From the IMG/VR virus record IMGVR_UViG_3300028738_000014: 64,000 nt of DNA; one strand, written 5' to 3'. Of the stretch, positions 19,692 through 49,228 are shown piece by piece; position 1 is the stretch's first letter; each line of letters starts with the position of its first letter. The notes under the pieces were generated by a model. That model had not been told where the DNA came from. It did not search any database and saw only the letters and a program-made list of their open reading frames with translations. The DNA comes from a virus. A program made the translations under genes and the position numbers.

Positions 19692-20174
19692 CTATTTTAA
19701 ATACTCTTTCATCTCGTCAATCGCATTTCCAACGCTCCGAACAATTACATACTTACTACCACAACTCTCTGCCTGTTGTTGAAATAATAGTTGTTCATCC
19801 GATTGATTGCCTTGTTGAGTTTTAAACTCCATTAGAAGGCTTGCAAATCCTTTTTTAGGTATAAGAAGGATTACGTCGGGAACTCCTGGCTTCAATCCTT
19901 GCCTTTTAAGATTCTTAGCTTCAATCGGATTCCTGGATCCACCATTCGGAACGGAAAAAAGTAACTTATCTGGTAATTTCGGGAAGAACGTCGGAACAAC
20001 TTTAAAAAACTCTGATTGGATATCCGCTTCTTCATGACCTATTTTTCTTTTTCCTTTCTTTGGTTCTGCAGCATCCTTTTTATTTGTATAACAAAGATAA
20101 CAAACAAATCCTTCAGGAGTTTCAATGACCGATACTTTCGGTTTATGGCAATGTATGCAAATTTCTTCTTTCAT
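19692..20174 (-). CDS. VRR-NUC domain nuclease
   Basis: GVPDVILLIP...LLMEFKTQQGNQSDEQ matches the VRR-NUC (PD-(D/E)XK) core. Confidence 0.6.
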   Translation of the reverse strand: MKEEICIHCHKPKVSVIETPEGFVCYLCYTNKKDAAEPKKGKRKIGHEEADIQSEFFKVVPTFFPKLPDKLLFSVPNGGSRNPIEAKNLKRQGLKPGVPDVILLIPKKGFASLLMEFKTQQGNQSDEQLLFQQQAESCGSKYVIVRSVGNAIDEMKEYLK

Positions 20175-20176
20175 AG

Positions 20177-20488
20177 TTATAAATTAAATGTATCTTCAGC
20201 AGTTGGTCTACATGGATTAAATTGGACAGTGTAACCAAGTGCTTTCATTTTTAGAATATCAGTTTCGATTACTCCGACAAATGCAGGGAATTTATTATGT
20301 CCACAACAGCACCCCGTTGTTATAATACCCATCTTCCATAACTCCTGAATTTCTTCCAATATGCAGGAGTCGATACAAATTGTATGAGATGAGGTTCCTT
20401 CGCATCGACCTATCATATGTTTAGGTCGATTGACTTCGATTTGATTGGCATAACTGCCTGATTCAACGTTTTTACAATTGCACATCAT
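20177..20488 (-). CDS. Cys-rich protein, CCGH family (paralogue 2 of 3)
   Basis: DSCI...GCCCGHN shared with the 2949 and 48577 products. Confidence 0.45.
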   Translation of the reverse strand: MMCNCKNVESGSYANQIEVNRPKHMIGRCEGTSSHTICIDSCILEEIQELWKMGIITTGCCCGHNKFPAFVGVIETDILKMKALGYTVQFNPCRPTAEDTFNL

Positions 20489-20489
20489 A

Positions 20490-21038
20490 TTATTTACTTG
20501 TTTGCTTATTCATATTCATGCCCTCACTCATCCAACTCTGATCCTGGATAAGTCTAAAAGTCTTTACCTCCGCCCATGAAGTTATTCTCACCGTCAAATC
20601 GCCAAGACCGTAATTTTTTTCAATCAACTTATCCAAAATATTTTGCTCCATTTTGATTGTATCTACGACATCTGAATTAGTTATTCGAATATACCCGGAT
20701 ATTTCACTCATTACAATTCCGGCCAATGTTAGTTCCGGATGCGAAATTGTATTATAAAGAGTAAATATATCTACGATTGAATACGTCATTACCGATTTGA
20801 CTGTTATTGTTTTATTATCCAACGTAGAAATGGTCTGAATGGGTAAATCTACAGTTCTTAATCTTATTTGCTGAACATATATTTGATCAATAAACGGAAT
20901 TTTAAAGTAGAACCCCTCTTTCAAAACCTTACAGTTTTTACCAAATCGAATAAATACAGCTTGCTCCCATGGAGTGACGGTAAACCACCAAGAAAATATT
21001 TCTTTTATAAACGAAATCAATTGTCCAAATACTTCCAT
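20490..21038 (-). CDS. SPFH/band-7 domain protein
   Basis: PWEQAVFIRFGK...VLKEGFYFKIPFIDQIYVQQIR resembles the SPFH (HflK/C, stomatin) N-terminal core. Confidence 0.5.
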   Translation of the reverse strand: MEVFGQLISFIKEIFSWWFTVTPWEQAVFIRFGKNCKVLKEGFYFKIPFIDQIYVQQIRLRTVDLPIQTISTLDNKTITVKSVMTYSIVDIFTLYNTISHPELTLAGIVMSEISGYIRITNSDVVDTIKMEQNILDKLIEKNYGLGDLTVRITSWAEVKTFRLIQDQSWMSEGMNMNKQTSK

Positions 21039-21059
21039 AATTTATTTGTTTATAGTTAT

Positions 21060-21296
21060 TTACTCTTCGTCATTTAATGATTTAAACTTACCAAATACAG
21101 TCTCACAAACTTTTTTCATTCCGGAAATTAATCCGGATCCACCTTCTTTACATCTTGAAAGAAATATCCATTTATTTCCATCATCATAAACCAACATAGC
21201 TGCTTTAGTTTGCAATCTATCGACAGCTGCTTTAAGTATTTCTTCATCTGTTAGTTGAGATACAGGTAAATCTCTTATTTCACGAATGTTTCTCAT
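21060..21296 (-). CDS. hypothetical protein
   Basis: ORF. Confidence 0.4.
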   Translation of the reverse strand: MRNIREIRDLPVSQLTDEEILKAAVDRLQTKAAMLVYDDGNKWIFLSRCKEGGSGLISGMKKVCETVFGKFKSLNDEE

Positions 21297-21823
21297 AATG
21301 CTCTCCTTAGTGAGTGATAACGATAATATGTGCTTTCAAGTAGCTTTAAAATTATTCTATCAGTAGCTTTTTCCTTTGAAAGTTTAGGAGCGACCTTGAC
21401 AACTTTAAAATATGGATTTACATAAGAAGTATCGATATAAATTAATCCGGCGAACTCCGGAACTTCATCGACTGAAATAAGATCTTTCGGAACTATATAA
21501 TAAAAGTAATTCACGCGGGATCCGGATTGAAGGATATCATATTTTACATGTTTGCAAGGCTGCCATACACCATCTATTTCTTTGTTTCCAGATCGTTGTT
21601 TCTTTGCATCGGCTTTAAAATCCGCCCGGGTAATTTTCACCTCATATTCGTACAAATATCCGGACTTAGTCAGTTCAACGATATCACACTCCCAACTACC
21701 AATGTATGTATTCGGGAAAACCTTCGTTTGAGGCTTATTCCGTAGCACGTCATTGATATACGATTGTATGATATCGTTAGCTGAAAGCTTTTGATCTACA
21801 AATAGATTAGGTTGATTGTTCAT
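21293..21823 (-). CDS. putative PD-(D/E)XK-like nuclease
   Basis: ECDIVELTKSGYLYEYEVKITRADF suggests a D...E.K catalytic motif. Confidence 0.35.
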   Translation of the reverse strand: MNNQPNLFVDQKLSANDIIQSYINDVLRNKPQTKVFPNTYIGSWECDIVELTKSGYLYEYEVKITRADFKADAKKQRSGNKEIDGVWQPCKHVKYDILQSGSRVNYFYYIVPKDLISVDEVPEFAGLIYIDTSYVNPYFKVVKVAPKLSKEKATDRIILKLLESTYYRYHSLRRAL

Positions 21824-22337
21824 TGTTATTCACATAATTAATTATGGATTCATGAGAAAAAGTATTCAAATATGCTTCTTCGCTTAATTCATAATCCCAA
21901 AAACTTAGTTTTCCTTTTACGTTTTCAATTGGATTATCGAAAAGGATAGGATTTGCAAGTACCCAATTATAAACAGGGACTTCAACCATGAATATTTCGC
22001 CAGCAATCTTTTTTTTCTTAATGGCTGTATGTTGAGCCCAAATAGATTCATGATTGGGTACGCAATCAACTATTTCAACCGAACCGATAATTCGAGAAGT
22101 TTGTTTATATGAATCAAATACATGGATCATAGTATCTACATCCTCCCCTTCAAAGATTAATTCGGCTTGATCTCCTGTAAATATTTTATATGGTTCTTTA
22201 TCTGGTATTCCGCTCGAATGAATAAGTATACGTTGTCCTATATACTTTTCAGGGCATTTCCAAGTACGGTTTTCAATAGGTTTGATATTAGCACAGATTA
22301 ACCATGCCCAGGGATTTTTTACTGATAGTACTTTCAT
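21807..22337 (-). CDS. ASCH domain protein
   Basis: VLSVKNPWAWLICANIKPIENRTW...ILIHSS matches the ASCH/PUA-like opening. Confidence 0.55.
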   Translation of the reverse strand: MKVLSVKNPWAWLICANIKPIENRTWKCPEKYIGQRILIHSSGIPDKEPYKIFTGDQAELIFEGEDVDTMIHVFDSYKQTSRIIGSVEIVDCVPNHESIWAQHTAIKKKKIAGEIFMVEVPVYNWVLANPILFDNPIENVKGKLSFWDYELSEEAYLNTFSHESIINYVNNNEQST

Positions 22338-22341
22338 AGTC

Positions 22342-22476
22342 TTAATTATAACGCCCGTTAGAGTTAACGTGGTGGGTCTTCACGTGTTGTCTGTGTTGAG
22401 GTTTACCGTATAAACCATGATCAACACACCCGGAAAGGAATAAGGATATTACAGCCAAAAGAATTAGTTTTTTCAT
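22342..22476 (-). CDS. small lipoprotein (44 aa), not in ORF track
   Basis: MKKLILLAVISLFLSGC lipobox; ATGA overlap with upstream small ORF. Confidence 0.3.
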   Translation of the reverse strand: MKKLILLAVISLFLSGCVDHGLYGKPQHRQHVKTHHVNSNGRYN

Positions 22477-22605
22477 ATTTTATTTATTAAATCGTAAATA
22501 AATGCGAGAAGTAGTAGTACAATTACGAATAAACCAAGAAAAATGGCTTTTAAATTACCCAAAGAATTCTGTTTCCTTAGTTCTTCGTTTTCAAATCGAT
22601 ATTGA

Positions 22606-22857
22606 TCAGGTGTTTTCATTTTGTATTATTTTGTAACCCATTTCTTTTAAAAATTGATCAACAGGTACCGGGTTAAATCGCAATAACCCTTTTGGATTAG
22701 ATTTTAAATTTTCCGGATACGCGCTTACTTTATGTTCTTCAGCCCACTTTATGAATTGAGCAGTTTTTGAAAACTCAATTTTAAGAGCGAAAAACTCCCA
22801 ATTAAATAAATCCTTCGATTGTCCGGTCGGATTAATTAGAGTGATTGATTTAGCCAT
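22606..22857 (-). CDS. hypothetical protein
   Basis: ORF; 8-nt overlap with upstream gene. Confidence 0.4.
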   Translation of the reverse strand: MAKSITLINPTGQSKDLFNWEFFALKIEFSKTAQFIKWAEEHKVSAYPENLKSNPKGLLRFNPVPVDQFLKEMGYKIIQNENT

Positions 22858-23839
22858 TTTTTAAAGATTCTTCATATTCAGTTCTCATAACCGGTTCGAG
22901 CACTTTCCAACATTCCGGACAAAACCAATTACCAGCTGAGTCGCTTTCCATATCTTCAATATCAAATTCTTTGTTGCATGAAGTACATTCTTCAAGGCAT
23001 TCATCCCCGCCAGTGAATATGTTGTACTTTCGAGTTACATTACATCTGGCATCGGGAAATATCCCAAAATGCTTTTGAATTGATTCTTTCCAATATACTT
23101 TTGCAGGAAAGTGAGCGAGCGTATTCACTACTTGTAAATTGAAAGATCTAAGTTTATTATAGAAGTGTTTATCTACTTTTTGACCTGACATAAGGCCTAT
23201 TTTGTATAAATCACAATATCCCAACGATAGACGAATCATTTCGTAGCTTCTTTCAAAATCAATGATAGGTTCAATACTTGCAAAGGTCTTGAAACCCGCT
23301 TCATGTAACAGTTTCATGCCTTCAATCCGTTCCTGATTAGTTGATGCTCCCCTTTCAAGTTCATCATACCCTGTAAGAGTAAACCCAAATGCAATAAGTT
23401 TTCTCCATTCCCGATCGGCATTATCAGAATTGGAATGATTAAAATAATTCAAAGTACTTTCGACCCAACCGGCTAGTTTTGTAAGTACTTTAACTGGAAT
23501 TTCGTGTGCATTACAAAACATAATTGCCTTCCAGGTTAAATCCCAAAATTCAGTCAACATCGGATCTGTTGTAAAAGAAAAGAAAAGACCGTGTTTTTGA
23601 AGTTCTGTTTTATTGATTAATACCTCTTTTTTAAATATTTCAAAAGCGGTTATTTCATTAACCAAACATTTTTTAAGTTGAGGTCTATCCATTCCCATAA
23701 CACCTTTAAGAATACCTTTTTTGCAATAACAGTATTCACATCCATTTGAGCAACCTACTACTAAATTACAACCCCAATAACTATATTCCCTCGCTGCTCC
23801 GCTTGGATTATATATCGCCTTACCATTGAATTTTTTCAT
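22850..23839 (-). CDS. Cys-motif enzyme, radical-SAM-like / phage Gp37-Gp68 (DUF5131)-like
   Basis: NPSGAAREYSYWGCNLVVGCSNGCEYCY gives NP..GC...GCxxxCxxC; C-terminal CxxC zinc ribbon. Confidence 0.5.
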   Translation of the reverse strand: MKKFNGKAIYNPSGAAREYSYWGCNLVVGCSNGCEYCYCKKGILKGVMGMDRPQLKKCLVNEITAFEIFKKEVLINKTELQKHGLFFSFTTDPMLTEFWDLTWKAIMFCNAHEIPVKVLTKLAGWVESTLNYFNHSNSDNADREWRKLIAFGFTLTGYDELERGASTNQERIEGMKLLHEAGFKTFASIEPIIDFERSYEMIRLSLGYCDLYKIGLMSGQKVDKHFYNKLRSFNLQVVNTLAHFPAKVYWKESIQKHFGIFPDARCNVTRKYNIFTGGDECLEECTSCNKEFDIEDMESDSAGNWFCPECWKVLEPVMRTEYEESLKNG

Positions 23840-24057
23840 ACTATTTTTCCTTTTGATTTTTGAAAATAAACACTTTCCAGGTCTTCTCTTTCAGTTGCGA
23901 AACAAAGCGGGTCTTTTACTCCTTGAGGGCAGTTTTCACCCTTCTCTTTGAAATAGCACACTCCGCAATGAAATCTATCATACGTTCGTCTACAAGTTAG
24001 TTTGATTCCTTGTAAAACTGTGAGTTTATCGATCTGCAAATTCCTTAAATTTTTCAC
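23836..24057 (-). CDS. small Cys-rich protein (tandem paralogue A)
   Basis: C...VC...F...G..C......C..TER.D...YF pattern shared with 24054..24272. Confidence 0.45.
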   Translation of the reverse strand: MKNLRNLQIDKLTVLQGIKLTCRRTYDRFHCGVCYFKEKGENCPQGVKDPLCFATEREDLESVYFQKSKGKIV

Positions 24058-24272
24058 GCTTCCTGATGTATTAGTTCAAAATAAATCCTTTTACCGTCTT
24101 TTCTTTCAGTTGGCATACAATTTACTTTATCACAGGTTTCGCCCATTCCAGTGTGATCAAAACAACACTTGCGGCACACTGGCAAGTGATTATTTCCTAC
24201 ATGTTCCTTACATACGACATTTTCGCCTCCAATTTGACCCTGTTGATCAATTATAAATTCTTGCTTTCCCAT
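24054..24272 (-). CDS. small Cys-rich protein (tandem paralogue B)
   Basis: Same Cys/TER motif; translationally coupled. Confidence 0.45.
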   Translation of the reverse strand: MGKQEFIIDQQGQIGGENVVCKEHVGNNHLPVCRKCCFDHTGMGETCDKVNCMPTERKDGKRIYFELIHQEA

Positions 24273-24292
24273 TTTAGATTAAGATTAGTGAT

Positions 24293-24478
24293 TTAAACTG
24301 TAGTTGCTTCAATGGGTTCCGGTACTTTTTCTTCAAATACAAATAAAATACTGGTGCAAACATGCTTTGCGTGTAGTTCTGCTCTGTAAATCTCGATATC
24401 CTGAGTCTCAATTCTTTCTTTAAGGACTAATTTGTCCCCGTTTACCATTTTTAAAGTAGCTTTTGTAATTACGTACAT
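24293..24478 (-). CDS. hypothetical small protein
   Basis: ORF. Confidence 0.35.
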   Translation of the reverse strand: MYVITKATLKMVNGDKLVLKERIETQDIEIYRAELHAKHVCTSILFVFEEKVPEPIEATTV

Positions 24479-24490
24479 AATTTTATTATT

Positions 24491-26119
24491 TTAGTTAAAC
24501 ATATCTGCTAATAAATCGAGAGTACTTTCACTTACTTCATCACTTCCACCCATAACGGCGTTGGCGATTCCTTTTTTTGTTTGAATTATTTGATAAACAC
24601 GTTCGTCAATTGTATTTCTACCTGAGAAATACCGTGCTGTAACACTGTCCTTCTGTCCCATACGGTGTGCCCGGTCCTCGCATTGGCAACAATCTGCATC
24701 AGTCCAGGGAAACTCAACAAACGAAACATCTGAACTGGCGGTAAGCGTTAGACCGACTCCGGCAGCTTTAATCGAGCAAATGATAATATTTGTTTTAGAA
24801 CTATTTTGAAAACTATCAACGGCTCTCTGTTTTTGTTCTTGATTTTCCCTTCCTGTTACACATACGGACGATGGAAAAGCGTGTTTAAGTTGATCAACTA
24901 CGATATGAAGAGAGCAAAATATAATCATCTTTTTTCCACTTAGCTGGAAGTCCTTTACGCAGTCTATAACCTCTTTTACTTTCCCTCTTGCAGTAATTTG
25001 TCTAAGTAGAGTTAACCGGACCATTGCAGCACTTTTGAGTGCATTTTTTATATTTTTATCAGTTGCTTCTTTATACTTCTTAAGATATTCTTTCAAATTA
25101 TTTTCAGCGAACTGGTATTCTTCACGGTTACTAATCTCAACTGTTACAAGTTGTCGAACTTTTGCGGGCAACTCTTTTAATACTTTTGCTTTTTCCCTTC
25201 GGAACATGCAATTTTCGTAAAGCATTGCGCTCAATACTTTCAAATTTGATGATTCGGTAGGACCGGCACAGAATTGTTTTTGAAAATTAATGGATCCACC
25301 AAAATCATTAAGCCGGCCAATGATTGAAAGTTGTGGTACCAGGTCCTTTGGTTTATTTACAATCGGGGTTCCTGTTAATCCGATTACATAATCTTTCCCT
25401 TGTGCTATTCCTTTGCAATAATTACTTTGTTGAGTAGAAGAAGATTTACAGCGGTGTATTTCATCAATAATGACCGACTTAAAAATCTTCACATTCTCCT
25501 TAAAAATCACATTTTTGAGTGAAAAATGCTCTGATTGTTTTTCATGCAATACAAAGTATTTCTTCAAAGATTCGTAATTGACTATGAAAACCTGATAAAT
25601 ACCCTGGTTAAAGTAATAAGGCCAATTATCACGCATTTCATCGGTTAATATCATTGCCTTTTTATCGGTAAACTTTGACCATTCACGCTCCCAATTGATC
25701 TTTAAAGAACTTGGACAAATAATAAGACAAGGGAATGATTGCGCTATGTTGATTGTTGCAATGCTTTGCATACTTTTTCCAAGGCCAGGCTCATCGGCAT
25801 TAATGCACCTCTTTAAAACAAGTCCTCTTGCTATTCCTTTGAGTTGATAGTCGCGCGGCTTTAGCTTTAATTGATGCGGAACCAATAAATCTGGCATTTC
25901 AGACTCAATACTTTTCTTTTGCCAATCAACCGGTCCAAATCCTTTAGCACATTCAGCGTAATGTTGAAGTTGAGCTAAAGAGGAGCGGGGTACATTCCAG
26001 GTCTTTAAACTTGGAATGTATTTTGCCCCCTCAATCTTCTTTATTTCACTTGACAATCTTGGATGAAAGTCAAATTCAACAATATATAAATCCGTTGATA
26101 TGTCAAGTTGTATAGTCAT
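24491..26119 (-). CDS. SNF2-family helicase (paralogue 1)
   Basis: Motif I DEPGLGKSMQSIA, motif II DEIHRCKS, C-terminal helicase motifs (QCEDRAHRMGQ). Confidence 0.8.
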   Translation of the reverse strand: MTIQLDISTDLYIVEFDFHPRLSSEIKKIEGAKYIPSLKTWNVPRSSLAQLQHYAECAKGFGPVDWQKKSIESEMPDLLVPHQLKLKPRDYQLKGIARGLVLKRCINADEPGLGKSMQSIATINIAQSFPCLIICPSSLKINWEREWSKFTDKKAMILTDEMRDNWPYYFNQGIYQVFIVNYESLKKYFVLHEKQSEHFSLKNVIFKENVKIFKSVIIDEIHRCKSSSTQQSNYCKGIAQGKDYVIGLTGTPIVNKPKDLVPQLSIIGRLNDFGGSINFQKQFCAGPTESSNLKVLSAMLYENCMFRREKAKVLKELPAKVRQLVTVEISNREEYQFAENNLKEYLKKYKEATDKNIKNALKSAAMVRLTLLRQITARGKVKEVIDCVKDFQLSGKKMIIFCSLHIVVDQLKHAFPSSVCVTGRENQEQKQRAVDSFQNSSKTNIIICSIKAAGVGLTLTASSDVSFVEFPWTDADCCQCEDRAHRMGQKDSVTARYFSGRNTIDERVYQIIQTKKGIANAVMGGSDEVSESTLDLLADMFN

Positions 26120-26760
26120 TAGATAACAGGTTCGAGTACTAAACCTGATCCTTCAAGTACCGTTTCAAGTTCTTCAAGTTTTTTCTTTCTCTTGCCATGA
26201 CCTTTAATGATAAGATTACCATTAATCCCTGAAGCAGCATTAGAAAGTTCAATAGTCGCTTCGTTGGCTTTATCAAATTCAAATTCCTGTTGTTTTATAC
26301 CGAACTTATCATGAAAAAGATATTGATCTACTTCGTACGAACACATTTGAACATCCTGTCCAAGTTCTTCAGAGAATTCATAATCATCCTCGTACTTTGT
26401 AAAAGGAGCGATAAGATTCAGCACTTTTCCTGACTTGAGCAATTTTTGACCGATAATTGTCACACCTTCATGTTCGTCAGTTCCACCAATCACATAACCT
26501 GTGATCACATAATTATCCAATTGACTGATATCAAAATCACTGATTGTAGCGTGAGAGATTAAACTCATTTCAGGCTGCTCACATAACATTACTAAATGCA
26601 CTTTCATGCGATTAAACGAAGCGAGAAGATCAGCATGAATAATTCCGCTACAATCCTTGTTAACGGTATTAATATCAGTTGCTGTGTTCTCTTTAAAGAT
26701 CACGTTACAACGATCGTTTTTGATAGTCGCTTTACTAATTTCATTTTTTGTTACTTCCAT
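26119..26760 (-). CDS. hypothetical protein
   Basis: ORF; start overlaps helicase. Confidence 0.45.
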   Translation of the reverse strand: MEVTKNEISKATIKNDRCNVIFKENTATDINTVNKDCSGIIHADLLASFNRMKVHLVMLCEQPEMSLISHATISDFDISQLDNYVITGYVIGGTDEHEGVTIIGQKLLKSGKVLNLIAPFTKYEDDYEFSEELGQDVQMCSYEVDQYLFHDKFGIKQQEFEFDKANEATIELSNAASGINGNLIIKGHGKRKKKLEELETVLEGSGLVLEPVI

Positions 26761-26788
26761 AAAATTTATTTTGTTTAAAATTGAATTG

Positions 26789-26912
26789 TGGTGTGTACAG
26801 GATTCGAACCTGCACGTGTTCCTTTTCCAGTTTATTACGAGGGCTCGAACCTCGTCACACGTTAGCTATATTTCAAGCCTACTGTTGCGTCTACCAATTC
26901 CGCCAACACACC
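26789..26912 (-). ncRNA. 124-nt tRNA-like gene (type-II Leu/Ser-like arms with about 50-nt internal insertion)
   Basis: Minus-strand transcript has a perfect 7-bp acceptor GGUGUGU/ACACACC, D-arm GCGGAAUUGGUAGACGC identical to bacterial tRNA-Leu, T-arm GCAGG-UUCGAAU-CCUGU and a second GGUUCGAGCC hairpin; no canonical anticodon arm found. Confidence 0.5.
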
Positions 26913-26918
26913 GATTTA

Positions 26919-27152
26919 CTAAATATCTAACCACATTGCATTTGAAAAAGCAGATCGACCACAGACAGTACAGCATACACTACCACCACGTATCTCTTTT
27001 TCATACTTAACTTGATTATCGGGGGTATCAGGAACTTCTTCTTCATCTGAAAGAATTAGTACTAATCCATCCTCATTGCAAGTATGATCGGTAGGTTGTC
27101 CACCACACATGAAAGCTGTAGATGTTTCGCTTAATTGAATTATTTCACACAT
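26919..27152 (-). CDS. small Cys-rich protein
   Basis: C-x3-C...CC-x2-CG motifs. Confidence 0.4.
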   Translation of the reverse strand: MCEIIQLSETSTAFMCGGQPTDHTCNEDGLVLILSDEEEVPDTPDNQVKYEKEIRGGSVCCTVCGRSAFSNAMWLDI

Positions 27153-27162
27153 AATTTTATTT

Positions 27163-27543
27163 TTAAAATTGAGCCCCCGATAACTTCATTTCTTCTTTTG
27201 CATAACTAAGTAAAGTTATCATAGATGCTGATTGATGTGTACAGCTTGCGTTTAACCGGTCCAACCAATCAACTAAATAACTTTCTTCAATACAGATACT
27301 TTTTAATAGCGCGCTTTGAACAGCAGCCGCTAAATGAGCCTCTTTTGCGATGCTAATAATAGTCTTTTGAATCTCTGAAGTTTTCTTTGTGTTCAAAACC
27401 ATTTTTGCATCTGCCAACATTTTTCCTGTGCGTGCCGTATATACAGCCAGTTCCCGAATTCGTTGTTGAATTTCTGCCGGATTATCCGAACAATGGATTT
27501 CAAGATAATCTTGTATTTGCGTTGCTTCTTCGTTAAGTGTCAT
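27163..27543 (-). CDS. hypothetical protein
   Basis: ORF. Confidence 0.45.
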   Translation of the reverse strand: MTLNEEATQIQDYLEIHCSDNPAEIQQRIRELAVYTARTGKMLADAKMVLNTKKTSEIQKTIISIAKEAHLAAAVQSALLKSICIEESYLVDWLDRLNASCTHQSASMITLLSYAKEEMKLSGAQF

Positions 27544-27666
27544 TTATAATTTGTTTATTTGTGTCTGACATTAAAATATCGATTACTTTAAAAATACTCT
27601 GATCTCCAGTGTCGCAAAAAGCTGAGTCGAGATGAAGCATTATCTGATCAAGTTCGCCGGTTGTAA

Positions 27667-27930
27667 TTAGTATCGTATTATCTGAATTTTTGACCATGTG
27701 AGCTGTTTTTCAAGATCCTTGTTCTTATTCGTTACTTCTACTATTTCACGCTGTAAACGCTCGCATTGACGTTTGTAATAGGCTTCATTCGTCTTGTGAA
27801 TTTTACACTCTTTTTCAGCCTGATCAACTCTTGCAGTTACTGGATCGGTGAACTTTCCGTCTCCGGCTTTATAGAACTTCTTTTTCTTTGTTGAAATTTC
27901 CTGAATTTCGAATGGGAATAGATCGCTCAT
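27667..27930 (-). CDS. hypothetical coiled-coil protein
   Basis: ORF. Confidence 0.4.
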   Translation of the reverse strand: MSDLFPFEIQEISTKKKKFYKAGDGKFTDPVTARVDQAEKECKIHKTNEAYYKRQCERLQREIVEVTNKNKDLEKQLTWSKIQIIRY

Positions 27931-27936
27931 AGGATT

Positions 27937-29625
27937 TTATTTTAATGAAAATAAATTTATAATTGAGTCAATAGTAGATTCTTCAGTATTATCAACAGCC
28001 CCCGTACATGCTGAACTCATTTCGCGCTTATCATTTATAACCTGGTAAATATCTTCATCAATCGTATTTTTACCTAAGAAATAAGATATCTGTACAGCGT
28101 TTTTCTGACTAATACGGTGACAACGGTCTTCACATTGATCGGTATCGGCTGAATGCCATGGAAGCTCAATAAATGCCACGCGTGAAGCTGCTGTAAGGGT
28201 AATACCAACACCACCGGCTTTGTAGTTTACGAATATCAAATTATGATCGGTGGGAACAAATTCATGATCAGAATTAGAATGCCTTTCATATCGAGTATCA
28301 CAGACAGTACAGCGTTGGAATTTATGTATATTAGTATTCCTTTTTTCTGAACTTTCCGAACCGGTATAAAATAATGCAGTTGGATAGTAGCTTCTTAGTA
28401 CATCGGCCACCTCATTAAGATAGATGAACACGACAATCTTTTCACCGGATTCAAGTACATCATCAATATATTCCTTCACATCAGCAAGTTTTCCACGTGC
28501 CGAAATGTTTTTAAGTACTCCTATCTGAACCATTATTTTACCCTTCATACTTTTTGCAATCTGAGGTTCAGTTGCTTTTCGATATTCTCTCAAATAACTT
28601 TCAAGATCTGCCATTGCAGCATCGTATTCAGGTTGATTTGAAATATTGCAAAATACCTTTTGTCGAAATTTATCAGGTAACTCTTTGAGTACATCTTTCT
28701 TTTCTCTTCTGAAATAGCATTTATTCCGGAGTATTGAATTAATTTCCGGCCAACGCTCTTCATCGGCACACATTTCACGAAATGCAACGGATCCACCAAA
28801 CTCTTTCAGTTTATCAATGATCATAAGTTGAAACATTAGATCAACCGGTTTATTTACAATCGGGGTACCGCTGAGTAACTGGGTGAACTTACCTAATGCT
28901 ATCCCGTAGGATAATTTACTTTGTCGTGTTGTTTTATCTTTTACCCTGTGACTTTCATCGATAATTACCGATTTGAAAACATTTATACTTGGAAGAAAAT
29001 TAATGTGTTTAAGTAGCATTGTTTCCCCTTTTGGGGTCTCAATATTCAAAACGAAATACTTCTGTATTGATTCATAGTTGACGATAAATACATCATATAC
29101 ACCCATGTTATAAAATGTTTCCCAGGTGTGCTTTATTGAATCCGTAAGTATAACCGGTTTATGATCGGAGCAAAGTTTCCATTCCATTTCCCAGTTCAAT
29201 TTTAAAGAAGCCGGGCAAATAATAAGACAGGGAAATTCATTTTTAGCTATAACCGTTGCGATGCTTTGAAGAGTCTTTCCAAGTCCAGGAGCATCCCCAT
29301 TGATACAGCTACCGTGTTCAATCCCGTAAGCAATACCTTCTTTTTGATAATCGTAAGGTTTTAGCTTAAGATCAATATTTTGATTAAGCTTTGGCATTTC
29401 AGCAGGTGCATCGAAAACACGACGTTTTGAAATCTTTCCAGTCATATCAAAAGCATATTTCTGAGCGAACATCTGAACTTCAAATTCCCAACGGCGTGGA
29501 AGTTCCCAACGCTTCAATTTCGAATCATAATTTACATCCGGAAGTTTGGCTACAGCTGCCGATATCTTCCGATCGTAATCAAACTGAATTAAATACTTAT
29601 TTTCTTTTTCAACTACTATTCTCAT
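27937..29625 (-). CDS. SNF2-family helicase (paralogue 2)
   Basis: GDAPGLGKTLQSIA, DESHRVKD, QCEDRCHRISQ; start set at MRIVVEK by alignment with paralogue 1; track extends to 29655. Confidence 0.75.
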   Translation of the reverse strand: MRIVVEKENKYLIQFDYDRKISAAVAKLPDVNYDSKLKRWELPRRWEFEVQMFAQKYAFDMTGKISKRRVFDAPAEMPKLNQNIDLKLKPYDYQKEGIAYGIEHGSCINGDAPGLGKTLQSIATVIAKNEFPCLIICPASLKLNWEMEWKLCSDHKPVILTDSIKHTWETFYNMGVYDVFIVNYESIQKYFVLNIETPKGETMLLKHINFLPSINVFKSVIIDESHRVKDKTTRQSKLSYGIALGKFTQLLSGTPIVNKPVDLMFQLMIIDKLKEFGGSVAFREMCADEERWPEINSILRNKCYFRREKKDVLKELPDKFRQKVFCNISNQPEYDAAMADLESYLREYRKATEPQIAKSMKGKIMVQIGVLKNISARGKLADVKEYIDDVLESGEKIVVFIYLNEVADVLRSYYPTALFYTGSESSEKRNTNIHKFQRCTVCDTRYERHSNSDHEFVPTDHNLIFVNYKAGGVGITLTAASRVAFIELPWHSADTDQCEDRCHRISQKNAVQISYFLGKNTIDEDIYQVINDKREMSSACTGAVDNTEESTIDSIINLFSLK

Positions 29626-30269
29626 GGTCTTCCGTTTCCAAAAAATAAATGCCATTTGTAGGCTAATTCTAAATACTTTTGTTTCCCTTCTAAGTAGAAG
29701 TCTGATTCTTTATTTATAAATATTTTGAAGACTTTGTGATTTTTCTTCGAAATTCCTATTATCACATCTCTATCAGCTCCTTCAATGTCCATATACCATG
29801 CACGTGAGCGATCGTATTGAAAGAATTTACAAGCTGCTTCAAACTGCATCTGTGTTTCGGCAGCCGTACTCTTTATATCGCCTCCCCATTTCCAGTCATC
29901 CCGCCAAATATCCCACTTACATCTCCGATCGAGTTCAAATTCAACACCATTAAAATTCATTAACGCATTGCGCTGGATACTTATTTTTTGTGCATTTGCT
30001 CCACTCATTAGGTCAGAACAGAAAGGATCCCGCCAAAAGGCTTGTTTCATTTTAATGGTATTCTCAAAAGTTGCCTTTTTATAAATCACATCTTCCCGGG
30101 TTCTTTTGAAATAATCAACCTTATAAGATTCGGTTATCATGGCATCAAGAAGATTTCCATCGGCAAAGGCTTGTGTAGGATCCATCGGGTTTGATTTCGG
30201 ATTGAGTTGGTCCAATAACCAACCCAAATCCGAATTTGATACTTCAGGACGTTTAAAATAAGCGTCCAT
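29622..30269 (-). CDS. putative PD-(D/E)XK recombination nuclease
   Basis: GGDIKST (D-x-K) and upstream Asp residues; position next to RecT-like gene. Confidence 0.4.
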   Translation of the reverse strand: MDAYFKRPEVSNSDLGWLLDQLNPKSNPMDPTQAFADGNLLDAMITESYKVDYFKRTREDVIYKKATFENTIKMKQAFWRDPFCSDLMSGANAQKISIQRNALMNFNGVEFELDRRCKWDIWRDDWKWGGDIKSTAAETQMQFEAACKFFQYDRSRAWYMDIEGADRDVIIGISKKNHKVFKIFINKESDFYLEGKQKYLELAYKWHLFFGNGRP

Positions 30270-30532: not shown

Positions 30533-30534
30533 AG

Positions 30535-32082
30535 TTATTTCGCTTTATAAACCGGTTCGTAAACAAGTAATTTACTTTCAATTGTCACATCGTTTTTGAC
30601 AGCATACTTTTCGCAGAATGCCTTAATACGAGTGATTGACATGGATTCTATTTTGTCGTTGGTAAGGTTTTTACCTTCGTTTTCGAACCAAAAAGATATA
30701 AGTTGAAGATAACCGGCCGGATTCAGTACTTTGATATCATATCCCTCTTTTACTTTTGGTGCTTCAGTAAATAAATCAGCCTGAGTATCAACCATTGCAT
30801 TTACTGATTGTCCGGTTGCCTGAACAGTGGCAGCAGCTTCAGCTTTTAATTGTGATAACCTGGCTTCTTCCTTAAGTTTTTGCTTCTCCTCTTCTTTCCG
30901 AATACGTTCATTTTCTTCGTTTTCAGAAACAATACGTTGGCGTTCTTTTTCAGCGTTTATTGATTCAATACGTTCGGATTCTTTTTTTTCCATTGATTTT
31001 GCAAATTCAATCAAAGAAGGTATTTCTTTACATTCTTCTTTAATTGAAATAAAATCATTTTCGAGTTCCGGAATTGATTTTGTAGGCGTTACAAATAGTT
31101 CCAAATTATTTGATTCACTCGGAATGACATATCCAGTTCTTGCATAAACAAGCTGTTCAAAAGCAATTTTTAATTTCTCAGTTTTTTCTTTTTGTTCTGT
31201 TTCTGCCTTCTGTCTTGCCTGTTCGGATGCTAAATCTGCGAGCCGTTGACGTTCTTTTTCTTCCTCTTTTGCCTTTATATCGGCTAGACGTTGACGTTCC
31301 ACTTCTTCCAGTTGGTTTTTTTTCGAAGGAATCATATCGAGTAGTTCACGTTTGAATTCGGTAATTGATTTTTTAAAATCATCCATTGCCGTGTAGCAAA
31401 GTTGTTGAGCGATTTTTCCGGTAATCAATACTTTTTCTTCAGCAGTATGATGCCGAATAGCTAATTCTATTTGGACATAGAAAACAAATTGAGCATCGCT
31501 AAGATTATTATCAAATTTTTCTATTTCACTAGATGCAGTTTCGATATTGGAAAGAATAAGACCATTAAACCAGGCATTTTTTGTATTTTTAAAATTCATG
31601 ATATATTCAGAACTTGCCTGAGCATATCCAATACGATAAAGTCTTTCGATTTCGATAGCTTCCTGTTCTTTGGCAAGCTTCAATTGAGCCTGTTTTTCTG
31701 CTTCCTGTCGTTCTTTCATGATCTTAGTTGCATAATCGTTCCGGAGTGATTGGAGCGTGTCAATAGGAGTGTTTAAATCATTTTCCAATGATGTAAATTC
31801 CTTAGCAACTAATGTCATCATTTGAGTAAATGAAGAACGTTTATCGTTCATTGCCTTTTTTGTCTTCTTTACCTTATCAATATAGGATGCAAGTTGAGCA
31901 TCGATAATATCATTCATTCCCTGTTTTGCTAATGCAATTAACTCATTCCCTTTTTCAAGTGCTTTGGAGTATGATGTTTTGTTTTCTGCAAGAACTATTG
32001 GGGCTTGAGTCATAAGAGTTTTAAACTCTTCAATTTTTACTACGGATGTAGTTTCTGCGGGTAATGTTTGTGTTGTTTCCAT
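30535..32082 (-). CDS. large coiled-coil protein with internal KERQRLAD tandem repeats
   Basis: E/K/Q-rich; ERQRLADIKAKEEEKERQRLADL repeat. Confidence 0.5.
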   Translation of the reverse strand: METTQTLPAETTSVVKIEEFKTLMTQAPIVLAENKTSYSKALEKGNELIALAKQGMNDIIDAQLASYIDKVKKTKKAMNDKRSSFTQMMTLVAKEFTSLENDLNTPIDTLQSLRNDYATKIMKERQEAEKQAQLKLAKEQEAIEIERLYRIGYAQASSEYIMNFKNTKNAWFNGLILSNIETASSEIEKFDNNLSDAQFVFYVQIELAIRHHTAEEKVLITGKIAQQLCYTAMDDFKKSITEFKRELLDMIPSKKNQLEEVERQRLADIKAKEEEKERQRLADLASEQARQKAETEQKEKTEKLKIAFEQLVYARTGYVIPSESNNLELFVTPTKSIPELENDFISIKEECKEIPSLIEFAKSMEKKESERIESINAEKERQRIVSENEENERIRKEEEKQKLKEEARLSQLKAEAAATVQATGQSVNAMVDTQADLFTEAPKVKEGYDIKVLNPAGYLQLISFWFENEGKNLTNDKIESMSITRIKAFCEKYAVKNDVTIESKLLVYEPVYKAK

Positions 32083-32942
32083 TAAAATATTTCCTCCTCA
32101 TCTGTTTGGTTAGTAATTTGAATTGTTGCTGTTTTTTGTATTTCCTCAACGAATGTTTTTGGCTGTATTTCTTCCTGCTCATCGCCTTCGAAAGATATAT
32201 TCTCAGATACCTTCAGTTTGGTATAGGCCCTCATAGCATGTTTAATGCATTTTGCTTCCAAAAACCCAGGATCTATTTGGCCGTCATTCGCTTTGTAAAG
32301 AGAATTACCATCCTTTTGAGTTTTGGTTTTTGAGTAATTTGCTAACCTGGTAATATCATCTTCTAATAGCCATTTAAAATCAAGTCCATTGTGAGGAAGG
32401 ACAATACAGACATAAGCTCCAATAATTTTATTTGTCTTTCTTGGAATTGCAGGTAAGTAATCAACTTTAAGTTCTCCTCGTTCATTTGTACATGGTTGAA
32501 ATTTATCTCCATCATAAATAACTATTGGATTATTCATTCGGATGATTTGTCCTGACTTGATCCTGAGATTAAGCTCTCCGTAAGCAGTTACTACCAACCG
32601 AGCCACTTTTACCCAATTATCACGACCTTCTTTAGGTTGGTTTGCGGCTCTTGCTTCGAGATAGGAATCTGACTTACTTCCAGGTTGTAGAGAAAGTCCG
32701 GTAATAGCAACTTCGAAAAAAGCGGAACACAATGAAATTCCGGTGCTTTCTTTTAACCAGTCATTTTGAGATACCAGTCTTTTGAAATACCTGGATTCGC
32801 GTTCGTATGTTGCTTCAGAATCTTCCGGAGTAAACCGGTGCATTCTTACCAGTGTATCAATGAATGAATCTTTGATTGGTTGCTGATCCACGAGCGTGGT
32901 TTTGTCGACTACATTAAAGTCGGGTTTTAATTTTTCTGACAT
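32082..32942 (-). CDS. RecT-like single-strand annealing protein
   Basis: GISLCSAFFEVAITGLSLQPG...YLEA...VTAYGELNLRIKSGQI...IYDGDKF resembles the RecT core layout. Confidence 0.45.
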   Translation of the reverse strand: MSEKLKPDFNVVDKTTLVDQQPIKDSFIDTLVRMHRFTPEDSEATYERESRYFKRLVSQNDWLKESTGISLCSAFFEVAITGLSLQPGSKSDSYLEARAANQPKEGRDNWVKVARLVVTAYGELNLRIKSGQIIRMNNPIVIYDGDKFQPCTNERGELKVDYLPAIPRKTNKIIGAYVCIVLPHNGLDFKWLLEDDITRLANYSKTKTQKDGNSLYKANDGQIDPGFLEAKCIKHAMRAYTKLKVSENISFEGDEQEEIQPKTFVEEIQKTATIQITNQTDEEEIF

Positions 32943-32969
32943 GACTTTATTATTAGGTAAATTGTTGAT

Positions 32970-33194: not shown

Positions 33195-33284
33195 TATATT
33201 ATATGAATTTAGTGTGCTGTTAGTTGAAGTAATATAAGCGTTAAAAATCCGAGAAAAAACAATGCGATAAGCGCATATTTAAGA

Positions 33285-33572: not shown

Positions 33573-33576
33573 ACGA

Positions 33577-36220: not shown

Positions 36221-37348
36221 ATGATTAATCGGAATTATACCACACCTAAATTAAACAATTGCAAGGGCGATCTATCTAAATCCTGGTATATCTATTTTGT
36301 TTTCGAATACGAAGGAGAAAAGAAACAATTTCGAGTTAAAGATGGGATTAATTTTCTTAAGACAAAAAAAGAGCGAGAAGAATTTGCCTCCGTCTTAATT
36401 AATATATACGTCTTACGACTAAAAGAGGGATGGAACCCATTCACCAAAGAAATAAAGGAAGAAATACCTGATATTACCATCTCTCAGGCTCTTGATGATA
36501 TACTATCAGTAAAGAAGAGCTATATAACCCCCCGGTCCTATAAGACCTATAAGGATGAAATAAACCTTTTCAAGAAATGGCTTGTAATTGCCAAATTCGA
36601 TAAACTATTTGTTCACAATTTTACTAATAAGCAGGCCCGGGGGTACTTCGATTGGCTACTTAAAGTAAAAAAATATTGTGGTAAAACTCACAACGGTCAT
36701 TTAAGTATTCTCAGCACTTTTTTTAATTCTTTTGTTGAACGTCAGCTTATAACTGAAAGCCCTATAAAAGGAATTAAGAAAGTCAGACAGGATACTGGGA
36801 AAAACATTACTTACTCACCGGTAGAAGAACAGAAGTTCATTAAATACACTTATACAAATGATAAACCATTTTACTACGCAACCCGTTTTGTTAAATATGG
36901 GTTCTTTCGTCGTACAGAATTAGGGTTACTTCAAATTAAACATATCAAATGGGAAAATAAAACCATTGTTATTCCTTCAGAGAACTCAAAGGGGAGGGAT
37001 CAAAACAGCGTTACAATTCCGGAGTCGTTGGAAAAGATTATTATTGAAATGAATATACTTGAGTTGGATCCGGAACTTTATATTTTTGGCGAATATTTTA
37101 AACCAAATACGGAACCTATTAAAATGATCGAGTATTTTTCTAAAACTCAACGAGAAATTAATAAACTTATCGAAGTTCCATCAAAAGGATTCTATGCGTG
37201 GAAGCATACGGGCTGTATAGAACTTTATAATATTGTAAAAGATCCTTATGTTATTATGAGGCAATGTAGACATTCAAATATTAAAGATACAATGACATAT
37301 TTACGATCATTGGGTTGTGGAGTAAATGAAGAAGTTAGGAGATGGTAA
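36221..37348 (+). CDS. int: tyrosine site-specific integrase
   Basis: C-terminal WKHTG...RQCRHSNIKDTMTYLRS (R, H-x-x-R, Y). Confidence 0.75.
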   Translation: MINRNYTTPKLNNCKGDLSKSWYIYFVFEYEGEKKQFRVKDGINFLKTKKEREEFASVLINIYVLRLKEGWNPFTKEIKEEIPDITISQALDDILSVKKSYITPRSYKTYKDEINLFKKWLVIAKFDKLFVHNFTNKQARGYFDWLLKVKKYCGKTHNGHLSILSTFFNSFVERQLITESPIKGIKKVRQDTGKNITYSPVEEQKFIKYTYTNDKPFYYATRFVKYGFFRRTELGLLQIKHIKWENKTIVIPSENSKGRDQNSVTIPESLEKIIIEMNILELDPELYIFGEYFKPNTEPIKMIEYFSKTQREINKLIEVPSKGFYAWKHTGCIELYNIVKDPYVIMRQCRHSNIKDTMTYLRSLGCGVNEEVRRW

Positions 37349-41994: not shown

Positions 41995-42795
41995 ATGGCT
42001 CTAAGAGATCAACCATATTTACCTTTATTTATTCAGGACTTTCTAACCGATGAAAAACTTGCTGAATGTTCAGCGAGTGCTACCGGCGTTTATATCCGGC
42101 TTATGTGTTTAATGCATAAGTCGGATGATTACGGTAAAATTTTGCTTAAGCAAAAATATAAAAAGAGTAATAATCCGGTAATGAATTTTGCTTCACAAAT
42201 TGCAAAACAAATGCCTTACGATTTCCAAACTGTGACTAACGCACTTGTGGAATTATTAGATGAAAAAGTTCTAATAATGGAGGGTGAAGTTATAATCCAA
42301 AAGAGAATGGTTAAAGACAATGCATTAAGTGAAAAACGATCTTCAGCAGGTAAAAAAGGAGGAGATAAAACTCTTGGTAAACATGAAAATTTTGCTCAAG
42401 CAAATGCTCAAGCAAAAGTGCAAGCAAACTCTGAATATGAATATGAAGATGAAAGTATTATTAAAAGTAAAGAAAGTAATAGTATTGCGGAAAATTTAAT
42501 TTTTCAACAATATCAAGTAATTCCAATTGATAAATTACTCGATTGTATGCTATCAGATGATCAATGGGTACAGGATATTGCAAGAATTCATCATCTATCA
42601 ACGGATTACGACAAAGCAATTAAATATTCTAAAGAGTGGATTTCTTTGTATGTTGATAAATTAAGAGGCGATAACGTAAAAGAAAAGCCTATAAATGAGT
42701 GTTTTGGACATTGTTCCAATTGGATTAAACAAGAAAAAAATAGACAAAACAATGGAAAACAACAACAGGAAAAAACGAACGTCTTCGTCGCCTAG
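41995..42795 (+). CDS. replisome organiser-like protein (DUF1376-like N-terminus)
   Basis: LPLFIQDFLTDEKL...GVYIRLMCLMHKS; overlaps the dnaB start. Confidence 0.4.
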   Translation: MALRDQPYLPLFIQDFLTDEKLAECSASATGVYIRLMCLMHKSDDYGKILLKQKYKKSNNPVMNFASQIAKQMPYDFQTVTNALVELLDEKVLIMEGEVIIQKRMVKDNALSEKRSSAGKKGGDKTLGKHENFAQANAQAKVQANSEYEYEDESIIKSKESNSIAENLIFQQYQVIPIDKLLDCMLSDDQWVQDIARIHHLSTDYDKAIKYSKEWISLYVDKLRGDNVKEKPINECFGHCSNWIKQEKNRQNNGKQQQEKTNVFVA

Positions 42796-44227
42796 CCCGG
42801 TATCGGCAAATGAATTTGGTAAACTTCCACCTCAAGCAACGGAATTAGAGGAATTGATATTAGGCGCTGTAATGCTTGAAAAAGAAGCTATAGAACGAAT
42901 TGAGTTAGTTCCGGATGATTTCTATAGAGTTGCTCACCAAAAGATATATTCAGCCGTGTTGAGGCTTAAAAACAGCCATAATCCGGTTGATATGTTCACG
43001 GTAACCGACGAACTTCGTAAATCAGGTGAAATTGACGAGGTGGGAGGTCCATATTTCATTTCAATTCTTACATCAAAAGTAAGTTCTGCAGCACATATCG
43101 AATTTCATGCACAGATTGTGAAACAGAAATCAATTGCCAGGAACTTAATTCACATGGCTTCTGAAATTCAGAGCATGGCATACGATGACAAGGTTGATGT
43201 TTCGGATGTGATTGAGTATACAGAACAGGCGTTTTCTGATATAAGTACATTTAGTCAGGATTCTGATTATTCGGATATGCCGGAATCAATACAGGAAACG
43301 ATAGAGTATTTACAAGAACAGCAACGGAAAAGAGAAGCCGGTGAAAATGTTGGTATTCCAACAGGATTAGATGCTCTTGATAGGTCGCTAAATGGTGGAT
43401 GGTCAGCTCCGGATCTGATCATAATAGGAGGAAGACCCTCGATGGGAAAGACGCAATTTGCTGTAAGTTTTGCTAAGGCAGCCGGTGCTTCAGGTAACGA
43501 TACCCTTTTTCTATCGCTTGAAATGACTAAAAAGCAACTTATCATGCGAATGATTAACGAGCAGGACGGTATTTCATTCTATAACATGAAAAACGGGCAG
43601 CTTTCAAAAGAAGAATGGAGTCTAATCGAAAATAAAATAGCTGAATTAGAGAGATTGAATATAAAAATTGCGGATAGTGTGAAGTCCAGGTACTTACATA
43701 ATATTAAATCCAATGCCCGTAAACTTCATAGACAAGGAAAATTAAAGTTAATGATTATCGATTACCTGCAGTATATCAAAACAAATTTAAAGTTTGGTAC
43801 CCGGGACTTGGAAATAGGATTTATCACAAGTGAGTTAAAGGCTCTAGGAAAGGAATTGAATATTCCTATCATTTTACTCGCTCAGCTGAACAGACCACCA
43901 AAGGGACAACATATTCAAAAACCTGAACTTTCGGACCTTCGTGAATCCGGAAATATTGAACAGGATGCGGATATCGTCATTTTTCCACACCGGCCAAGTT
44001 ATTACGAAGAAAATGCAATTGATGATCAAAATCGATCCTGGACTAATCGCGGAATACTTTATATGGGAAAAAACAGAGAGGGAATGAAAAATGAAAAAGT
44101 ATTATTCCAACACGATGATCGATTTAAGAAAATATGGGATGATGGAATTACTCCTTATTTTAATAATCCCGTAACAGCTGGATTTGAAAATATCGTGAGC
44201 AAGCTTAATGATGATGAACCCTTTTAA
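42752..44227 (+). CDS. dnaB: replicative DNA helicase DnaB
   Basis: N-terminal ELEELILGAVMLEKEAIERI, Walker A GGRPSMGKTQFA, RecA-like motifs; first ATG (MENNN) used, track starts 42695. Confidence 0.8.
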   Translation: MENNNRKKRTSSSPSPVSANEFGKLPPQATELEELILGAVMLEKEAIERIELVPDDFYRVAHQKIYSAVLRLKNSHNPVDMFTVTDELRKSGEIDEVGGPYFISILTSKVSSAAHIEFHAQIVKQKSIARNLIHMASEIQSMAYDDKVDVSDVIEYTEQAFSDISTFSQDSDYSDMPESIQETIEYLQEQQRKREAGENVGIPTGLDALDRSLNGGWSAPDLIIIGGRPSMGKTQFAVSFAKAAGASGNDTLFLSLEMTKKQLIMRMINEQDGISFYNMKNGQLSKEEWSLIENKIAELERLNIKIADSVKSRYLHNIKSNARKLHRQGKLKLMIIDYLQYIKTNLKFGTRDLEIGFITSELKALGKELNIPIILLAQLNRPPKGQHIQKPELSDLRESGNIEQDADIVIFPHRPSYYEENAIDDQNRSWTNRGILYMGKNREGMKNEKVLFQHDDRFKKIWDDGITPYFNNPVTAGFENIVSKLNDDEPF

Positions 44228-48994: not shown

Positions 48995-49067
48995 GCCTTT
49001 TTAGCTCAGTTGGTAGAGCGATTGCCTTGTAAGCAATAGGTCGTACGTTCGAATCGTACCGGAGGCT
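48995..49067 (+). tRNA. tRNA-Thr (anticodon UGU)
   Basis: Cloverleaf: D-arm GCTC-AGTTGGTAG-AGCG, anticodon arm ATTGC-CTTGTAA-GCAAT, T-arm GTACG-TTCGAAT-CGTAC; acceptor has two G-U pairs and one mismatch. Confidence 0.65.
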
Positions 49068-49228
49068 CAAAACCAAAAGAAAAGGGGATTTTGAAAGTAG
49101 TTGAAATTTATTGGTATCTGATCAATACCTTTGAATTAATATTATTTTTTGTAAAGCTAACAAAATAGGAATCCCCGCCGAACTACTGCCAACATGCAGA
49201 CGAACTGTAATAAAAGAGCTTTAAACAA

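Follow-up and report, generated by a model that had tools for sequence, protein, structure and literature searches.

The window analysed here is a 64,000-nucleotide stretch of viral DNA (IMG/VR record IMGVR_UViG_3300028738_000014) of a temperate Bacteroidia phage, encoding an integrase, a DnaB-like replicative helicase and a large terminase subunit (Table 1). Its recombination/replication operon, a minus-strand block from ~18000 to 34700, holds two SNF2-family helicases, here called A and B, which lie 1.8 kb apart on the same strand. A tRNA-like gene is located between them, and the operon further encodes a RecT-like single-strand annealing protein, a PD-(D/E)XK exonuclease (hereafter PDDEXK), a VRR-NUC nuclease and the genes that we designate p126, p213 and p515. 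A preliminary description of the locus, made from the sequence alone, had taken A and B for the products of an ancient tandem duplication. We find that the two proteins are homologous throughout, yet that they belong to separate lineages, and that the pair was probably assembled by recombination between two related phages.

Domain architecture of the helicases

A and B align collinearly over their full length with 43% identity (236/555 residues; BLASTP, E 1e-155), and both match phrog_62. The Pfam domains SNF2-rel_dom (PF00176; 2.3e-28 in A, 2.7e-23 in B) and Helicase_C (PF00271; 8e-13 and 4.2e-9) were found in each, above the Pfam cut-offs. One shared architecture and a common ancestry, as claimed in the preliminary description, are thus borne out, and the motifs quoted there (motif I, DE(I/S)HR and QCEDR(A/C)HR) are present. 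The catalytic motifs read DEPGLGKS, DEIHR, TGTP and QCEDRAHRMGQ in A and DAPGLGKT, DESHR, SGTP and QCEDRCHRISQ in B, all intact; SNF2 motifs I (GxGKT/S), II (DExH), III and VI (arginines) are complete in both proteins. The AlphaFold2 (AF2) model of full-length B (predicted local distance difference test score, pLDDT, 89.3) has the standard two-lobe SNF2 core and superposes best on SNF2 remodellers in the PDB (E ~1e-24). This whole-protein fold search returned generic SNF2 remodellers and did not single out SMARCAL1.

The similar N-terminal domain that had been noticed in both proteins is likewise supported: family profiles of the A-type and B-type N-termini match each other with 97.5% probability (hhalign). 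Pfam HARP is matched weakly by A itself (13.1 bits, E 0.07, sub-threshold), and homologues 61% identical to A exceed the cut-off for this domain (P0145, 25.7 bits; P0146, 28.3 bits). The A-type family profile finds the SMARCAL1 HARP structure in the PDB (4o66, E 7.6e-4). B has no match to Pfam HARP; the top PDB match of the B-type profile is also 4o66, but at E 0.13. Residues 1-75 of A are modelled by AF2 (pLDDT 85) as a beta-beta-alpha-beta-beta-alpha fold, whose best PDB matches are the damage-recognition domain (DRD) of XPB, 4o66, MutS and Mfd, none of them significant. On this profile and model evidence, namely the HARP profile matches, the match between the A and B profiles and the models, both proteins therefore appear to have a SMARCAL1-like architecture, with a single N-terminal HARP domain followed by a complete SNF2 core.

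In eukaryotic SMARCAL1/HARP (PDB 4o66), as apparently in A and B, HARP is N-terminal to a complete SNF2 core; the single repeat of the phage proteins is as in invertebrate HARP (PMC4035279). For the HARP-like SNF2 ATPases of eukaryotes an origin in selfish elements of prokaryotes has been suggested (PMC3417536). Many homologues of A and B carry names given after SMARCAL1 by the Joint Genome Institute (JGI). The phage proteins differ from SMARCAL1 in their much shorter length (542-562 aa) and in a HARP sequence similarity that is marginal, and no binding motif for replication protein A (RPA) or eukaryotic regulatory region turned up in them, although no search was aimed at such a motif. A and B are new members of an already known helicase family.

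In the alignment, every B-clade row shown carries the CxxC...H...H insertion in ATPase lobe 2 of B, as does a single further row (P0041); it is missing from all remaining rows, those of A-type proteins included. Its residue pattern suggests that it is probably a small zinc-binding element. The open reading frame (ORF) of B is readable back to 29655, but we place the start at the ATG at 29625, because homologues begin at MRIVVEK and because this codon overlaps the stop codon of the upstream PDDEXK gene (ATGA). In a similar way, the stop codon of p213, the gene upstream of A, shares a base with the start codon of A (TAATG). Each helicase is predicted to be translationally coupled to its own upstream partner.

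Several homologues of A and B are ~900 aa long (P0013, P0021, P0039, P0098, P0099, P0116, P0122 and P0168), and most of these match the Pfam domains LAGLIDADG_3, Hom_end or Intein_splicing. In locus L050 (8378..11101) the helicase is interrupted by a ~1 kb insertion. Repeated intein invasion of the HARP-SNF2 helicase family seems to have taken place.

Separate clades of A and B

Searches with A returned more than 100 clusters of single-copy helicases from other Bacteroidales phages at 57-62% identity, against 43% to B. A distinct set of 25 clusters, 56-100% identical, was obtained with B; outside its clade this search gave ~95 clusters at 44-53%, nearly all above the 43% that separates B from A. 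The two proteins are no closer to each other than to SNF2 helicases of other phages. A neighbour-joining tree of 81 sequences, computed from Kimura distances over 541 columns with 100 bootstraps, places B in a clade of 25 taxa with 100% bootstrap support and A within a 40-taxon clade, also supported at 100%, in which it groups with Bacteroides phage BS-TP3 (99%). The lineages of A and B meet only at the root of the whole sampled family. All isolate phages matched carry one copy, among them BS-TP3 and BKO1-TP3, whose helicases resemble A more closely than B.

In the tree A and B are neither closest mutual relatives nor members of a clade that excludes foreign single-copy orthologues, as duplicates formed in situ would be. 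Because each copy is closer to the helicases of other phages than to its neighbour, we conclude from the sequences that the pair most probably did not arise by local gene duplication.

Gene order and copy number in related phages

Nearly all related phages (60 loci scanned for copy number) have a single helicase, and the two single-copy types each keep the same flanking genes. The B-only type comprises L003 (62% identity to B) and L004 (56%), each with 10 kb flanks, and L008 (75%), which is on a shorter, 8.4-kb contig; the order is RecT-like, p515, PDDEXK, B. The A-only type, represented by BS-TP3 and L002, has a p213 homologue upstream and VRR-NUC downstream of the A-type helicase. The two helicases together are confined to phages whose B shares at least 91% identity with that of the window (L010, L011, L012 and L016), and A is 71-83% identical there. 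No isolate phage matched the region in a nucleotide search, and literature searches returned no study of phages with two HARP-SNF2 genes.

The window combines features of both types. With L003, L004 and L008 it shares the RecT-like gene, p515, PDDEXK and a helicase B (56-75% identical) that carries the CxxC...H...H insertion; those phages differ in having NinG instead of VRR-NUC and in missing the A-type copy and p213. The RecT-like and PDDEXK proteins of the window are 49-71% identical to those of the B-only phages, compared with 32-52% for phages outside the B clade. With the gp39-gp40-gp41 cluster of BS-TP3, which contains a phrog_62 helicase, the window shares the order p213-like gene, helicase, VRR-NUC, and full-length alignment of A with gp40 gives 47% identity. 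It differs from BS-TP3 by ~4.3 kb of cargo between A and VRR-NUC and by the helicase of the other clade upstream. Neither p213 nor VRR-NUC was detected in the B-only phages. NinG is present in B-only and intermediate phages and absent from the window.

The position of the small gene p126 links the two arrangements. By tblastn it lies 3' of B in L008, the B-only phage whose genes downstream of B could be read, and 5' of p213 in the A-only phage L002. The complete orders are RecT-like, p515, PDDEXK, p126, p213, A in L002, and RecT-like, p515, PDDEXK, B, p126, further genes and NinG in L008. The window, which has both helicases, reads RecT-like, p515, p87, PDDEXK, B, three small ORFs including p126, and then, from p77 onward, the tRNA-like gene, p213, A, the 4.3 kb cargo and VRR-NUC. 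Since the helicase follows p126 in A-type phages and precedes it in L008, one crossover would be enough to yield both. We infer that B would be the resident helicase of the backbone lineage (RecT-like, p515, PDDEXK exonuclease, B), that A would have arrived from a different Bacteroidales phage lineage together with p213 upstream and VRR-NUC downstream, and that phages of the two lineages would have recombined once, at p126 or close to it, to produce a genome with both helicases. Read in this way, the locus is an ordinary, tidy case of phage mosaicism.

The nuclease partner of the helicase varies by lineage, with NinG in B-only and intermediate phages and VRR-NUC in A-type phages; in the window only VRR-NUC is present. 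NinG was located at 3983..4687 in L003, 5553..6260 in L004, 6225..6626 in L008 and ~9619..10017 in L028-L035 and L053. In the L028 group it is directly upstream of the helicase.

Selection on the two copies

Comparison of L010 with L012 gave ratios of non-synonymous to synonymous substitution rates (dN/dS) of 0.027 (A) and 0.029 (B). In comparisons of the window with its relatives, the proportions of non-synonymous (pN) and synonymous (pS) differences are 0.11 and 0.83 for A and 0.05 and 0.70 for B, synonymous sites being saturated. Because non-synonymous change is low in the face of this saturation and dN/dS is low, both copies are kept by purifying selection in the phages that retain them.

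A sublineage represented by L005 departs from this pattern. In it a deletion joins the first ~20 codons of p213 to approximately codon 303 of A, and the resulting short ORF encodes the C-terminal lobe only (Table 1). The remnant of A is 91% identical to the window protein, with VRR-NUC directly after it, and B in these phages is 92% identical. The B protein of the L005 type is carried by 21 contigs, and all of those shown (3/3) have the deletion.

Neighbouring genes

The coordinates of the features discussed are collected in Table 1. PDDEXK is immediately upstream of the helicase in B-only phages, and the RecT-like gene is syntenic in all B-type loci. p515 found no family match in Pfam or PHROG scans. 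The gene p213 stands upstream of A-type helicases elsewhere, as in gp39-gp40 of BS-TP3; for many of its homologues the reported length of the longest contig is identical to that given for A-type helicase hits, which suggests a location on shared contigs. No function for p213 emerged from scans against PHROG (beyond phrog_9513), Pfam, NCBIfam and PADLOC, profile searching of the PDB gave no match, and among the homologues retrieved from 5.8 billion proteins member-wise Pfam scans found no domain. The VRR-NUC nuclease, which the preliminary description had associated with the helicases, is confirmed and adjoins the helicase in BS-TP3 and L005; the association holds for the A lineage only.

In the window ~4.3 kb of cargo genes (20177..24478, minus strand) separate A from VRR-NUC. 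They encode three small ORFs (two Cys-rich), a phrog_2776 protein, a Cys-rich 103-aa protein, a radical-SAM-like protein (22850..23839), an ASCH protein (21807..22337) and an SPFH/Band 7 protein (20490..21038). A canonical tRNA-Thr(TGT) gene (48995..49068, plus strand; Rfam 62.2 bits) is located immediately 3' of the terminase gene. Promoter and terminator scans gave site counts not above those in shuffled sequence.

Table 1 Coordinates of the helicases and associated features (in the window unless another locus is named)
Feature	Coordinates	Strand	Description
VRR-NUC nuclease	19692..20174	-	Pfam VRR_NUC 25.9 bits (cut-off 23.8); phrog_824; phrog_5702 Holliday junction resolvase
Helicase A	24491..26119	-	542 aa; HARP + SNF2 ATPase; A-type clade
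HARP domain of A	25940..26119	-	residues 1 to ~60
p213	26119..26760	-	phrog_9513; upstream of A; 80 homologues, all hypothetical
tRNA-like gene	26789..26912	-	124 nt; between the helicases; Rfam tRNA 37.8 bits (gathering score 29)
p126	27163..27543	-	small gene; candidate crossover region
Helicase B	27937..29625	-	562 aa; HARP-like domain + SNF2 ATPase; B-type clade
B-clade insertion	28240..28314	-	25 residues, RCTVCDTRYERHSNSDHEFVPTDHN; CxxC...H...H; ATPase lobe 2
HARP-like domain of B	29431..29625	-	residues 1 to ~65
PD-(D/E)XK exonuclease	29622..30269	-	DUF3799, exonuclease VIII-like; Pfam DUF3799 1.6e-5; phrog_412 exonuclease VIII 3e-12
p515	30535..32082	-	conserved; between RecT-like and PDDEXK; syntenic in B-type and A-type relatives
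RecT-like single-strand annealing protein	32082..32942	-	phrog_148 5.9e-6; head of the B-lineage recombination block
Integrase	36221..37348		
DnaB-like replicative helicase	42695..44227		
Large terminase subunit	46532..48580		
Truncated A	L005 12899..13730		238-242 aa ORF, C-terminal lobe only; also in L006, L007, L017 and L018

Proposed function and alternative explanations

By analogy with SMARCAL1/HARP, A and B most likely act as ATP-driven annealing and branch-migration motors for recombination-dependent replication, and of the functions put forward in the preliminary description a recombination or fork-remodelling role remains the best guess. The HARP domain would place each motor at the junction of single- and double-stranded DNA, from where ATP-driven translocation on duplex DNA could lead to strand re-annealing, fork regression or branch migration. 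The overlapping stop and start codons, together with the synteny, suggest two working pairs. B would act on recombination intermediates in concert with the RecT-like annealing protein and the exonuclease to which it is coupled, and A, with p213 and VRR-NUC, would move and resolve branched DNA before packaging. The two helicases may be non-redundant, specialised annealing motors for different steps of phage recombination. Phage T4 offers a parallel in UvsW, a fork-regression and branch-migration motor from a helicase family other than SNF2, which lacks a HARP domain; the likeness concerns the proposed function only, that of an ATP-driven remodeller of branched DNA beside a structure-specific nuclease in recombination-dependent replication.

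We consider an origin by recombination, combined with SMARCAL1-like annealing and branch-migration roles, the best explanation as a whole and give it a probability of about 70%. Several observations weigh against it. The division of labour between A and B is inferred from gene order alone. The tree was built from distances rather than by maximum likelihood, and its deep A-side nodes have low support. The crossover site cannot be located, p126 being about equally distant from both types (47-48% identity). HARP is assigned to B through profile-profile transitivity, its own PDB match having an E of 0.13, and the fold matches of the N-terminal domain of A are non-significant. Among two-copy phages A diverges faster than B (71-83% against 90-93% identity), and at non-synonymous sites it evolves about twice as fast. 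Finally, the L005-type sublineage, which is without most of p213 and the first ~300 residues of A, is found in many samples; it is evidently viable without an intact A, which argues for redundancy.

These last points bear on the strongest rival explanation, according to which A is a redundant passenger: the recombinant would have inherited two helicases with the same job and would slowly be losing the second. The deletion of p213 and of ATPase lobe 1 of A in phages that nevertheless occur in many samples, the roughly doubled non-synonymous rate of A and the sufficiency of one copy in nearly all related phages all speak for it. Yet every motif of A is intact in the window, L010, L011 and L012 despite synonymous saturation, pN/pS is ~0.13 in those comparisons (dN/dS 0.027 between L010 and L012), and the stop/start overlap with p213 has been retained. 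We regard redundancy of A as rather unlikely.

A defence or counter-defence module, comparable to the SNF2 proteins of Zorya, DISARM or Dpd, is a very improbable alternative, and with it the anti-defence role that the preliminary description had considered is not sustained. The ZorD, DpdE and DrmD models of PADLOC and NCBIfam do match the SNF2 cores, but the scores fall far short of the curated cut-offs, at 121 bits against 1100, 77 against 1500 and 58 against 950, and of the modelled proteins, which have ~1000 aa, no more than the generic ATPase core is covered. The helicases contain no nuclease or other system-specific domain, no partner gene is found nearby, and both genes form part of an operon for recombination and replication that also encodes the RecT-like protein, the exonuclease and VRR-NUC. 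Descent of both copies from an ancient tandem duplication in this phage lineage, with later divergence to 43% identity, would account for the full-length collinear homology, the common strand, the 1.8-kb spacing and the identical domain architecture, but it is scarcely credible when more than 100 helicases of other phages share 57-62% identity with A, when A and B fall into different clades with 100% support, when B-lineage phages at 56-75% identity have B alone in the same synteny, and when A is accompanied by p213 and VRR-NUC, A-lineage partners not found in B-only phages.

The tRNA-like gene

The structured RNA between the helicases had been presented as a component of the unusual arrangement. 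The tRNA-like gene itself is real, as its Rfam score indicates, but it is not a conserved part of the arrangement: Rfam finds no tRNA in the same slot of L010, L011, L012, L017 or L005, and sister phages have ORFs or unrelated sequence there. Because of this lack of conservation the gene appears not to be integral to the helicase module. Its acceptor stem (7/7 pairs), T stem (5/5 pairs), Leu-type D arm and A73 are all present. A canonical anticodon arm (5-bp stem and 7-nt loop, positions 27-43) is missing and 42-51 extra nucleotides are found instead; the distance from D arm to T loop is ~74 nt, compared with an estimated ~38 in a Leu tRNA. The only canonical-looking hairpin in this insert has a T-loop sequence. 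The z-score of the minimum free energy (MFE) of the gene is -1.73, and no antisense target of the insert was found within the window, the longest matches being 10 nt. Default ARAGORN detected no tRNA between the helicases; its intron mode proposed an Ile(AAT) tRNA with a 42-nt intron, a call that is implausible and was not trusted.

Viral contigs were scanned for the same scaffold with a gap of 60-90 nt, which gave at least 118 matches (IMG/VR loci L061-L178) with at least 86 unique elements; the following figures apply among the matches listed. The elements share the D arm GGCGGAATTGGYAGACGC, the T loop GGTTCGAATCC and A73 (the last in 67/86), and 76/86 have a perfect T stem. All seven acceptor pairs are formed in 69 of the 86, which use 37 different acceptor sequences, and the acceptor stems are judged to covary. 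The middles, 60-90 nt long, are hypervariable, with a canonical anticodon-type arm in 8/86. An anticodon stem split by an anticodon-loop intron was rejected as a model, being found in 10/87 elements against 9.9 expected from shuffles. Crossing stems are enriched (42/87, compared with 23.9 +/- 3.1 in shuffles). In a sample of 16 elements, nine score 31-41 bits as Rfam tRNAs, and several stand beside canonical tRNAs; no Rfam family other than tRNA was matched. Literature searches produced no study of tRNA-Leu-like phage RNAs with short inserts.

We tentatively propose, as a possibility that falls short of an even chance, that the tRNA-like gene represents a widespread new class of phage RNAs with a tRNA-Leu scaffold. 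In this class the acceptor stem, the D and T arms and A73 would be retained and would covary, and a hypervariable stretch of 60-90 nt, in many cases with crossing, pseudoknot-like stems, would take the place of the anticodon and variable region. RNase P and RNase Z could process RNAs of this kind, and leucyl-tRNA synthetase (LeuRS), for which the anticodon is not a recognition element, might charge them; codon decoding would not be possible for them. The gene could otherwise be a decayed or recombination-scarred tRNA gene, or an unusual intron-bearing tRNA.

Related sequences were seen in other phages. BS-TP3 has a tRNA with ~37 extra nucleotides in the anticodon region (7778..7888 of L001, corresponding to 27702..27812 of the record), which scores 53.9 bits in Rfam over 110 nt and is called Pro(AGG) by ARAGORN in intron mode. 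A T-arm motif or partial tRNA-like sequence lies ~400-600 nt upstream of the helicase in L028-L035, L043 and L053. In this distant single-helicase group the motif has p126 on one side and the NinG-helicase pair on the other, a placement equivalent to that of the tRNA-like gene in the window. Rfam calls no tRNA at these motifs, and the intron-mode ARAGORN calls in L029, L033 and L053 were not confirmed by it. The slot may be a recombination hotspot.

Implications

HARP-SNF2 helicases beside recombination nucleases are common in phages, and for this family little changes with A and B: ordinary modular recombination accounts for the double copy. The locus is a clean worked example of how non-allelic gene positions in two related phages lead to doubling of a gene by one crossover. 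It is the tRNA-Leu-scaffold elements that merit further attention; if functional as RNAs, they would represent a new kind of phage non-coding RNA. With the natural variants, in which either both helicases are intact or A is truncated, nature has already set up a comparison by which redundancy of two annealing helicases can be tested. If A and B are specialised, the phage would provide a simple system in which SMARCAL1-like annealing, beside a RecT-like protein and an exonuclease, is separated from branch migration beside a resolvase.

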